Virus genome (UHGV): UHGV-0114979
Direction: 5' to 3' (one strand)
Length of the DNA: 13,455 nt
Origin: a virus
A program made the translations under genes and the position numbers. Position 1 is the stretch's first letter; each line of letters begins with the position of its first letter. The notes under the pieces are model-generated. The model had not been told where the DNA came from. It made no database searches and saw only the letters and a program-made list of their open reading frames with translations. Shown in pieces: positions 4,502-6,362 of the stretch.

Positions 4502-4529
4502 AAAAAACCCACCTTCAGGTGGGTTTTTT
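4502..4529. terminator. Bidirectional Rho-independent terminator shared by the convergent 328-aa gene and mnt
   Basis: AAAAAACCCACC-TTCA-GGTGGGTTTTTT: 7-bp G/C-rich stem (4507-4513 / 4518-4524), 4-nt loop, A-run on the left and T-run on the right. The mnt stop codon (revcomp of 4515-4517) lies in the loop, and the right arm plus T-run encode the Mnt C-terminus …KKPT. Confidence 0.8.
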
Positions 4530-4769
4530 ATCTTCTCCGTACATGCTGCTGAGAGTCTTTAGAAGAGCCTCCCTAAATTTTTCAGATTCTTGTTGAGCAA
4601 AACCTTCTATTGTTCTTGGTGATTTTTCTTCATCAATAGCAGCTTGCAAGATCATAACTATTTCTGAATTTAATGAGCGTCCGTTTTTCGATGCTCTTAT
4701 GGTCAGGTCGCGCTTGAGGCTATCTGGCATTCTTACGCTATATGGGGCTATGTCTCTAACCTTCGTCAT
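4515..4769 (-). CDS. mnt: Mnt-like ribbon-helix-helix repressor (immI region)
   Basis: 84 aa: MTKVRDIAPYSVRMPDSLKRDLTIRASKNGRSLNSEIVMILQAAIDEEK… The N-terminal beta-strand/helix pattern and the NGRS-x-NSE signature match the Arc/Mnt (MetJ-Arc) family. Size matches P22 Mnt (about 82 aa as recalled). Divergent from arc across an operator-rich intergenic region, as in P22 immI. Confidence 0.8.
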   Translation of the reverse strand: MTKVRDIAPYSVRMPDSLKRDLTIRASKNGRSLNSEIVMILQAAIDEEKSPRTIEGFAQQESEKFREALLKTLSSMYGEDKKPT

Positions 4770-4878
4770 ACTTACACCGTGATGATCACATTGATATCAC
4801 AGTGTATTCAAAAAAATTTTGACTTGATATACTCACAGTGATATGTTTGTGATTCACAATAACTCACGTGGTGGCAAT
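4770..4878. promoter_or_regulatory. Divergent mnt/arc-ant promoter-operator region (Pant/Pmnt analogue)
   Basis: 109-bp intergenic between divergent RHH repressor genes. Palindromes: GTGAT-G-ATCAC (4779-4789), TGATATCA (4792-4799), TCAC-A-GTGA (4833-4841), TGTGA-T-TCACA (4848-4858). Candidate rightward promoter: -35 TTGACT (4819-4824), 17-bp spacer, -10 TATGTT (4842-4847). The TCACAGTGA palindrome sits in that spacer and TGTGATTCACA near the start site. I could not place the leftward mnt promoter with confidence. Confidence 0.55.
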
Positions 4879-5031
4879 ATGGAAAAAGAAGTTAGCAGAA
4901 TTTTGGTGAGAATGCCTCAGTCGCTAAAAGATGCGATTACTGGAAAGGCCAAAGAAGAATGCCGGTCGTTTAACTCGGAAGTGATTAAGCGATTGCTGGA
5001 CAGCCTGAAGAGAGAGGGGGTGGTGGTATGA
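4879..5031 (+). CDS. arc: Arc-like ribbon-helix-helix repressor
   Basis: 50 aa from ATG 4879, with GGTGG 4 nt upstream; the ORF track's 4843 start adds 12 residues with no RBS. MEKEVSRILVRMPQSLKDAITGKAKEECRSFNSEVIKRLLDSLKREGVVV resembles P22 Arc (53 aa as recalled), including RS-x-NSE and the C-terminal KKEG-like motif. Confidence 0.8.
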   Translation: MEKEVSRILVRMPQSLKDAITGKAKEECRSFNSEVIKRLLDSLKREGVVV

Positions 5032-5219
5032 AAAACCGCAGATGTTGTTTTTGTGGGTGTAGTAAAGAAACGACTGGCAGGGGCTTTGTTGTGTCAAAAA
5101 ATACCGAAGAAGCAATTTGTGACTCATGCGTTACAGATATTGTTATTTTCATGCATGGCGAGAAGGGGTTAGATGAAAAGCTAGAGAGTATTCCAGTTGA
5201 AGGCGCTGATAAAAGTTGA
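5028..5219 (+). CDS. 63-aa C4 zinc-ribbon protein resembling the ClpX N-terminal zinc-binding domain
   Basis: The start ATG overlaps the arc stop (ATGA at 5028-5031), and a GAGGGGG purine tract lies upstream. MKNRRCCFCGCSKETTGRGFVVSKNTEEAICDSCVTDIVIFM… has C-x-F-C-G … I-C-D-x-C-V with about 21 residues between the Cys pairs, the same pattern as the ClpX zinc-binding domain (…CSFCGKS…ICDECV…). The C-terminal 25 residues are acidic. Confidence 0.6.
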   Translation: MKNRRCCFCGCSKETTGRGFVVSKNTEEAICDSCVTDIVIFMHGEKGLDEKLESIPVEGADKS

Positions 5220-5285
5220 AGCCCCAACTGCTGTAACAGTCAGGGCTTCGGTTGTCGGTAAATCCTTGGAGAAAAACCAACATGA
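5210..5285 (-). ncRNA. Candidate sar-like antisense RNA covering the ant ribosome-binding site and start codon
   Basis: On the minus strand a -10-like TATACT (revcomp of 5288-5293) would start transcription near 5282; the -35 is weak. Transcription would run leftward across the ant SD (GGAG 5268-5271) and ATG (5282-5284) into a hairpin (stem GAAGCCC 5218-5224 / GGGCTTC 5243-5249). On the minus strand the hairpin is followed by AACUUUUAUC. Predicted length is about 70 nt, matching the 68-69 nt I recall for P22 sar, which has the same position and polarity. Confidence 0.3.
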
Positions 5286-6184
5286 ATAGTATAGCAATTT
5301 TAGAAGCAGTGAACACCTCTTACGTACCATTCAACGGTCAGCAAATTATCACCGCCATGGCTGCCGGAGTTGCATATGTTGCGATGAAGCCAATCGTTGA
5401 AAACCTTGGAATGAGCTGGTCAACGCAGCAAACAAAACTCATGAAGCAGATTAGCAAATTCAACTGTGTTCATATGAACATGGTTGCCGCTGATGGGAAG
5501 CTTCGTAAGCTACTCTGCCTTCCTTTGAAGAAGCTAAATGGATGGCTGTTCAGCATCAACCCTGAGAAAGTTCGTGCTGACATCCGCGATAAACTTATTC
5601 AGTACCAGGAAGAATGCTTTACTGTGCTGCATGACTACTGGACGAAGGGAAAGGCAGAAAATGCACGTAAGAAAACATCTGTTGATGACAGGACTCCGCT
5701 TCGTGATGCTGTAAATATGCTAGTCAGCAAAAAGCATCTAATGTACCCAGAAGCTTATGCAATGATTCATCAGCGTTTCAATGTGGAAAGTATTGAAGAG
5801 CTTGATGCATCTCAGATACCGCAAGCAGTAGAGTACATCCACAGGGTAGTGCTTGAAGGTGAGTTCGTCGGCAAACAAGAGAAGAAAACCAACGAGCTTT
5901 CTGCAAAAGAAGCAAACAGCCTTGTATGGTTATGGGATTATGCCAACCGCTCACAGGCATTATTCCGCGAACTGTATCTGGCGCTAAAACAAATTCAATC
6001 GAACTATTCCGGCAGATGCTACGACTATGGCCATGAGTTCTCGTATGTTATCGGAATGGCGAGAGACGTTTTAATCAATCACACACGAGATGTTGATATT
6101 AATGAGCCAGACGGACCAACGAATCTTTCCGCATGGATGAGACTTAAGAATAAAGAATTACCTCCTTCAGTACATAACTACTGA
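5282..6184 (+). CDS. ant: Antirepressor Ant (P22 Ant N-terminal-domain family)
   Basis: 300 aa from ATG 5282, with GGAG 10 nt upstream; the ORF track's TTG 5252 start is rejected. [56 protein letters not shown]… matches the phage antirepressor N-terminal domain family. It lies downstream of arc, as in immI, and the length equals P22 Ant (300 aa as recalled). Confidence 0.85.
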
Positions 6185-6202
6185 CAGATAAACAACGCAA
6201 CG

Positions 6203-6226
6203 ACCCAGCTTCGGCTGGGTTTTTTT
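6203..6226 (+). terminator. Rho-independent terminator downstream of ant
   Basis: ACCCAGC-TTCG-GCTGGGT followed by TTTTTT (6221-6226): 7-bp stem, GNRA-like tetraloop TTCG, U-run. Confidence 0.8.
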
Positions 6227-6237
6227 ATGCCCAAAAT

Positions 6238-6336
6238 TCACCGTAGCTACTCAGCGGCTATGGACATGAGAGATAGCACTACACAAAAAGTGTAGTGCAA
6301 AAAGCAAACAAATACTCACCGTAGCCATGCTGCGGC
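6238..6336. promoter_or_regulatory. Symmetric repeat-hairpin-repeat element in the tailspike 5' region
   Basis: Direct repeats TCACCGTAGC-N6-GCGGC at 6238-6258 and 6316-6336 flank a perfect 9-bp-stem hairpin (GCACTACAC 6276-6284, loop AAAAA, GTGTAGTGC 6290-6298). Spacing is 17 bp on each side. Lies between the ant terminator and the tailspike SD (GGAG 6351-6354). Confidence 0.3.
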
Positions 6337-6362
6337 GATTCCTTGTATCTGGAGCAAATTAA

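Follow-up and report, generated by a model that had tools for sequence, protein, structure and literature searches.

The regular array of direct repeats and hairpin upstream of the tailspike gene is very probably a neutral scar that recombination and deletion left where the immI (mnt-arc-ant) module meets the tailspike, and not an element controlling tailspike expression. The window (the whole 13,455-nucleotide stretch of DNA that was analyzed) is part of a P22-like (Lederbergvirus-type) prophage, whose nearest relatives are the Escherichia phages phiv205-1, EC.P3 and E212 and the Salmonella phage UPF_BP1. Its genes follow the order mnt-like, arc-like, Cys-rich ORF, ant, ant terminator, element and tailspike (Table 1). 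The two domains of ant were recognized by Pfam (E = 3e-45 and 2e-28), and the gene also aligned to P22 ant. Its terminator, t_ant, is annotated in the P22 and epsilon34 records and is invariant across alignments A1/A2. The tailspike carries a Head_binding domain (Pfam, E = 6.5e-67) and is 98% identical over 2.2 kb to the tailspikes of E. coli FORC_041 and JNE082640.

Table 1. Features of the region between the mnt-like gene and the end of the tailspike gene, in window coordinates.
Feature	Position	Strand	Basis or remark
mnt-like Arc-family gene	4515-4769	-	
arc-like gene	4843-5031		
ant antirepressor gene	5252-6184	+	P22_AR_N and P22_AR_C domains; final gene of immI module
t_ant Rho-independent terminator	6202-6228	+	Terminator scan; GACCCAGC-TTCG-GCTGGGTT followed by T7
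Repeat copy 1 (TCACCGTAGCTACTCAGCGGC)	6238-6258	+	Repeat and pattern searches; duplicate of the leader's first ~21-24 nt, now diverging; ends where the gene relic is fused to it
PHROG 1726 antirepressor gene relic, 57 nt, codons ~48-68	6259-6315	+	Colinear alignments A3/A4
Spacers	6259-6275 and 6299-6315		17 nt each
Perfect 9-bp hairpin with A5 loop, GCACTACAC-AAAAA-GTGTAGTGC	6276-6298	+	
Repeat copy 2 (TCACCGTAGCCATGCTGCGGC)	6316-6336	+	5′ edge of the tailspike leader
Conserved tailspike leader ("boundary sequence")	6316-6362	+	Shine-Dalgarno GGAG at 6351-6354
Tailspike gene	6363-8564	+	Head_binding domain at residues 1-113, then pectate-lyase-like receptor-binding part

Both repeats conform to TCACCGTAGC-N6-GCGGC with a period of 78 nt, and the repeat search, the pattern search and the sequence itself placed the repeats, the hairpin and the spacers exactly where the sequence-only reading had located them. 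That reading judged the arrangement too regular for chance, and rightly so. The repeat motif is absent elsewhere in the window, where 0.08 occurrences were expected, a test biased by the pattern having been taken from the same sequence. We also concur that the hairpin is not a Rho-independent terminator: it is followed by AAAAAGC on the + strand and by TATCTC on the - strand, so that a U-tract is lacking, and the terminator scan called t_ant but nothing at the hairpin. A promoter scan of both strands found no sigma-70-like promoter in the element, and the hairpin of phage JEP4 likewise drew no call in either scan. Rfam 15 gave only chance-level matches for the element region (E > 1) and no match at gathering score for the intact-gene loci and P22, and no description of the element was found in the literature. 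The + strand RNA of positions 6229-6375 folds into three hairpins with z = -4.6, compared with z = -1.9 for the minus strand. The 17/17 spacing is not conserved, the homologous P22 element having spacers of 17 and 49 nt, which suggests that the symmetry is incidental to the deletion endpoint. Two further candidates in the region were rejected: an 11-codon mini-ORF, MDMRDSTTQKV (ATG at 6260 to TAG at 6293), which stays in frame in all haplotypes but has no Shine-Dalgarno sequence, and a long-range pairing of 6320-6331 with 6393-6404, which is not kept in relatives. Between the window-type and P22-type versions of this mini-ORF, all eight differing codons are non-synonymous and there is no third-position bias, and thus no coding substitution pattern.

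The two repeats differ in origin, copy 2 being the 5′ edge of a conserved tailspike leader and copy 1 a duplicate of it. From about TCACCGTAGC onward, the leader is common to loci lying behind ant and t_ant, behind Arc/Mnt-type genes and behind an IS911 insertion, and in phage CUS-3 (CP000711) the homologous ant-tailspike spacer is annotated "bsq1; boundary sequence." In viral locus L068, copy 1 is a perfect 24-nt duplicate of the leader (TCACCGTAGCCATGCTGCGGCGAT). Copy 1 varies between haplotypes, and copy 2 is nearly invariant. At another locus (L079), an mnt-type upstream module is followed by an identical repeat-relic-repeat arrangement, the pattern expected if crossovers occur in copy 1.

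The interior, in turn, is the remnant of a second antirepressor gene. Positions 6275-6312 of the window match nucleotides 164-201 of intact genes at 37 of 38 positions. The parent gene encodes a protein of 241-250 aa that belongs to the PHROG 1726 "anti-repressor" family (E = 2e-102) and is covered by no Pfam or NCBIfam model. It is found intact in phage JEP4, in phiKp_30 and in many prophages, usually either after ant in mnt-arc-ant modules, as in WS4437A-1, where it directly follows ant, or directly ahead of the tailspike leader as part of a Rha-antirepressor-hyp-mnt(-) module. The relic keeps about 20 of 241 codons; both ends are gone, the start codon is absent, and the old reading frame is interrupted at 6274-6276 by an in-frame TAG derived from GAG. 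At its right end, AAACAAATAC stems from the spacer that separates mnt from the tailspike in JEP4-type modules; this spacer, GCAACAAATAC(C/T)(A/C)ACCGTAGCC, is present in 40 of the 49 viral loci with a conserved tailspike start (80 loci fetched).

In alignments, the interiors of the window, P22 and 0H26 are colinear with each other, with a pseudogene in E. coli FDAARGOS_1288 and with the intact genes. P22 has both repeats, the homologous hairpin and 32 nt more on the right, giving a relic of 89 nt between the repeats, and the extra 32 nt correspond to the following codons of the intact gene (to about codon 78). In FDAARGOS_1288 (and the identical viral contig L067), the hairpin runs directly into a long ORF. 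A BLAST search with this stretch matched the P22 intergenic relic (query 2-85, 89%, E = 1e-20) as well as the coding sequence of JEP4_17, annotated "KilA protein" (query 40-515, 92%), and phiKp30_080 from the hairpin on. PGAP annotates this ORF as a pseudogene "missing N-terminus," which starts inside repeat copy 1 directly after t_ant; the truncated pseudogene is a decay intermediate at the very genomic position of the relic. The relic occurs in Salmonella (P22) and E. coli phages alike, and its hairpin, intact in nearly all copies, is about 97% identical to the intact genes, compared with about 67% for the left spacer. Besides the stop codon, decay is visible as one-sided C-to-T changes in two relics (L054 and L089), which keep U.G pairs on the + strand only. 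The hairpin of the window was inherited from an intact antirepressor gene. The seemingly compensatory changes among relics likewise go back to that gene and did not arise at the junction, given that intact genes carry the same haplotypes. The extra 32 nt of P22 also hold a second palindrome, AAAATAACTT-CCGAAA-AAGTTGTTTT (L002:761-788; 16119-16146 of the P22 record), corresponding to ACAACTT-CTGAAA-AAGTTGT at about codons 70-78 of the gene in L094; it is specific to one intact-gene cassette type and not family-wide.

We then consider how widely the element is distributed. In the phage collection, 286 records match the intergenic region, 34 of which cover its full length (the long form), and 799 of 5,426 complete E. 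coli genomes match it, about 99 with the long form. Most of the remaining E. coli matches have a form shorter by 78 nt, as read from sampled two-piece matches (record span about 99 vs 177 nt) and established as exactly 78 nt in aligned phages: CUS-3, epsilon34 and phiv205-1 have a single repeat copy and lack one repeat plus the interior. About 85% of related E. coli prophages with the same ant-leader junction do not carry the element. Other E. coli matches cover just the final 45-55 nt, beginning at the second repeat, behind unrelated upstream sequence (Arc/Mnt-type genes or IS911). The absence of the element from close relatives with the same tailspike, the sequence half of what the sequence-only reading had itself named as refuting a role, is what the sequences reveal: FORC_041 and JNE082640 have neither the element nor the conserved leader. 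A scan of 185,579 species-representative genomes with the core pattern gave no match, and all viral matches to this pattern lie at the ant/leader junction or inside an antirepressor gene; scans of viral contigs with the repeat-only pattern mostly returned unrelated Gly/Tyr-rich repeat genes.

Based on these comparisons, we propose the following course, in which both the order of events and the exact junctions are inferred from sequence. The ancestor would have had the order ant, t_ant, leader and tailspike, a short form still present in most relatives. The 5′ 21-24 nt or so of the leader would then have been fused inside a PHROG 1726 gene at a patchy microhomology (GAT..CTTG), the left junction being approximate. 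A subsequent deletion at the microhomology AACAA would have removed the rest of this gene and its neighbours, up to the spacer before the genuine leader, so that the first leader copy, a 57-nt stretch of dead coding sequence and the second leader copy were left. The equal 17-nt arms would be an accident of the deletion endpoints, and the flanking direct repeats would allow precise loss of the relic, regenerating the short form. There are two or three relic types with common junctions and differing hairpin haplotypes, a combination that would need either repeated deletions at this one microhomology or the exchange of short patches with intact genes, both putative. Most probably the relic plays no part in the expression of the tailspike. 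Its sequence will form a hairpin in the late transcript. The suggestion of the sequence-only reading that came closest is a recombination site linked to tailspike module exchange: the element does lie at a mosaic boundary, but it would be a scar and not a dedicated site, and the modules exchanged appear to be the upstream immI/antirepressor modules, not the tailspike.

Could the element nevertheless act on the tailspike as RNA? The hairpin and the two repeat hairpins might together form a functional leader RNA in the late transcript, co-opted from the gene relic, with roles in stability or processing, for instance as the stem-loop at a 5′ end made by RNase E or as a barrier that shields the ant mRNA upstream. 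The strand-biased fold described above, the U.G pairs retained on the + strand in L054 and L089, and the better preservation of the hairpin than of the left spacer are all in line with such a function, and the last of these could mean that the hairpin is still constrained in the leader. We nonetheless regard a leader function as unlikely. The element is missing from most same-junction relatives and from genomes with the same tailspike, P22 differs in spacing and length, and the hairpin haplotypes are shared with intact genes, which explains their preservation without any leader function; the U.G variants, for their part, are singletons that fit early neutral decay equally well. The processing or stability element that the sequence-only reading had proposed thus receives no backing, neither from Rfam, where no family was found, nor from the distribution.

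The same reading had offered a binding site for a late-gene regulator. In such a scheme, the 23-bp palindrome would be bound by a dimeric regulator that governs tailspike transcription, either a repressor of the Arc/Mnt type or a regulator of late genes, as might be suggested by the perfection of the palindrome and by other upstream modules that have operator-like palindromes at a similar distance from the leader, namely AGACCAC-A-GTGGTCT (L059) and TACCG-TTT-CGGTA (L058). We consider this very improbable, given that the arms change freely in sequence while pairing stays (5 of 9 positions covary), unlike the way operators evolve, that no promoter lies nearby, and that in the intact gene the palindrome sits inside coding sequence. 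Nor is it related to the window's probable immI operators (CACATTGATATCACAGTG and related sequences, 4780-4845), where a search for GCACTACAC gave no match. Even less credible is a miniature mobile insertion (MITE-like or REP-like), in which the direct repeats would be a target-site duplication. The indel does equal exactly one repeat period (78 nt), and direct repeats do bound the unit, but a 21-nt "duplication" with a different internal hexamer is atypical, terminal inverted repeats are absent apart from the central hairpin, and the interior is colinear with coding sequence. Moreover, in the collections searched, copies were found only at the ant/leader junction or within the antirepressor gene and none in unrelated contexts, with no core-pattern match in the species genomes.

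The parent gene poses a question of its own, since there the palindrome is strikingly constant. In intact genes, the hairpin stretch encodes E-H-Y-T-K-S-V-V-Q, and the haplotype of the window was found in 18 of them. We examined 87 intact genes from hosts belonging to Escherichia, Salmonella, Klebsiella, Serratia and Morganella (examples of intact PHROG 1726 genes are L091:1507-1529, which is JEP4_17, L094 from WS4437A-1, and L176-L179), and all 87 contain the palindrome, 9-11 bp long: 62 are perfect, 25 have 8 of 9 Watson-Crick pairs, and none has a G.U pair. Nine haplotypes were seen; the Phe/Lys type was predicted from proteins and then confirmed in DNA. The loop sequence varies (AAAAA, AATTT, GATTT, AAATT or TAAAA). 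Among ten gene haplotypes, 97.8% of cells pair, compared with 29-49% in slid controls, double-sided (compensatory) changes occur at 5 of the 9 stem pairs, and the covariation score is 0.593, compared with 0.183 in shuffles, none of 500 shuffles reaching the observed value.

This palindrome is aligned with the codons, reading G ACC TAC ..GTA GGT C, G CAC TAC ..GTA GTG C or G TTT TAC ..GTA AAA C (spaces mark codon boundaries), such that the residue before Tyr57 and the residue after Val61 are specified by reverse-complement codon pairs in 15 of 15 proteins. The permitted pairs are Thr-ACC/Gly-GGT, His-CAC/Val-GTG and Phe-TTT/Lys-AAA. Synonymous variation was observed in 87 of the 91 codon columns with an invariant degenerate amino acid, and the stem codons Tyr57-TAC and Val61-GTA are two of just four columns without any such variation (p about 0.0015). 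In an AlphaFold model (regional pLDDT about 80), residues 55-63 all lie within one beta-strand, the first strand of a predicted beta-hairpin wing at the end of the N-terminal domain; a fold search with this predicted structure gave no significant whole-chain match, only local wHTH-like matches. Given the single-strand placement in the model, positions 56 and 62 would not be protein contacts, and the covariation of their codons would thus point to a constraint at the nucleic-acid level. Two sources of this constraint are considered: the structure itself, as DNA or RNA, may be selected for, or the palindrome may maintain itself through template-switch ("quasipalindrome") mutation. The total lack of G.U pairs, together with complementarity that reaches into the loop in some haplotypes, makes us lean towards a DNA-level process. 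The strand evidence is mixed, the U.G pairs of two relics favouring the + strand and an A.C mismatch in one gene haplotype favouring the - strand. That the hairpin is a functional nucleic-acid element inside the PHROG 1726 coding sequence, a family with more than 2000 homologues in Enterobacterales phages, is a tentative proposal that we hold to be possible but doubtful. If functional, it could work at the DNA level, as a cruciform or single-strand hairpin for recombination or replication, or as an mRNA element controlling antirepressor expression. The window would in that case contain a stranded copy of it in the tailspike leader, possibly one that is still active.

Several known systems resemble parts of this locus. 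Boundary sequences (bsq) of lambdoid phages (Clark et al. 2001, J Mol Biol 311:657, as cited in PMC3029335) are, in the account given there, short conserved non-coding junction sequences shared by phages with differing neighbour modules, as is the tailspike leader, at whose 5′ edge the mosaic breakpoints lie. Unlike in that account, the first 21 nt or so are present twice here and enclose a gene fragment, and the bsq concept as summarized there leaves the hairpin unaccounted for. Degraded antirepressor genes have been described in the "ant moron" of the P22-like phages HK620 and Scho1 (Villafane et al. 2008, PMC2629481), a comparable case of decaying genes and changing modules in the interval from the ejection-protein genes to the tailspike gene; in contrast, the relic described here derives from PHROG 1726 and not from P22 Ant, measures 57 nt (P22: 89 nt) and follows an intact ant with its terminator. 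Quasipalindromes can be maintained through template switching during replication (PMC8794818; PMC7202029). Consistent with such a process, the stem of the intact gene is Watson-Crick perfect without G.U pairs, several adjacent nucleotides change in blocks together with their complements, and in some haplotypes the complementary stretch continues into the loop. The palindrome differs from these cases in being coding, codon-aligned and persistent across genera, so that selection may be at work instead. As in intrinsic terminators and the nut boxB of lambda and P22, the hairpin has a short stem and an A-rich pentaloop and lies in a phage transcript, but a terminator would require the U-tract that is missing here. 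A nut boxB is defined by a conserved GNRA-like pentaloop, a 5-bp stem and a nearby boxA, whereas this hairpin has a variable loop and a 9-bp stem, has no boxA and does not lie in an N-dependent operon.

These results remove a candidate tailspike regulator and document, nucleotide by nucleotide, the swapping and erosion of immI/antirepressor modules at a P22-like boundary sequence. P22 itself carries the same type of relic, unannotated, between ant and gene 9. More generally, a non-coding arrangement that looks regular may be what is left of a coding sequence. The element is ordinary as a feature of the tailspike, and the codon-aligned palindrome of the parent family is the sole part meriting follow-up; the question for specialists is why an antirepressor gene holds a perfect palindrome strictly enough to dictate which pairs of amino acids are allowed.

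Additional observations concern the neighbouring sequences. Between arc and ant, a 63-aa Cys-rich ORF (MKNRRCCFCGCSKETTGRGF...CDSCV...; window 5028-5219, + strand), whose start overlaps the arc stop codon (ATGA), resembles a small zinc-ribbon protein; it has no Pfam match, and P22 has no gene at that position. The probable immI operators, in the divergent promoter region of mnt and arc, combine the above-mentioned palindrome with repeated TGATAT..CACAGTG motifs and are unlike the Arc and Mnt operators of P22. About 15 nt before the Shine-Dalgarno sequence of the tailspike, repeat copy 2 folds as a small hairpin, CCGTAGC-CAT-GCTGCGG (window 6319-6335), whose stem includes a U.G pair when read on the + strand. 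This hairpin hardly varies among the upstream contexts seen, and its variants comprise three G.U-compatible changes and three mismatches, so that clear covariation is absent.

In two viral contigs (L105 and L117), a t_ant-like terminator, ATGCCCAAAA(T/C) and the leader also follow genes other than ant, suggesting that terminator and leader travel as a unit. In E. coli FORC_041 (L175:1000-1090), the closely similar tailspike has a wholly different leader and directly follows an Arc-family gene (...GGTATGCAATCACATCATGGTTGCATCATATCATTCGTCTGGAGCAATGAAATG), indicating that the conserved leader is not required for the tailspike of the window. Finally, the conserved tailspike start (ATGACAGACATTAC...) is interrupted after about five codons by inserted DNA in several relatives (L061:767-1267; L068, L071, L083 and L023; phage Kapi1, H50; and JEP4, L091:2700-2886). 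In some of them the insert is an HNH endonuclease gene on the opposite strand, with the real tailspike ORF restarting downstream, an arrangement suggestive of a homing-type insertion right where the tailspike gene begins.
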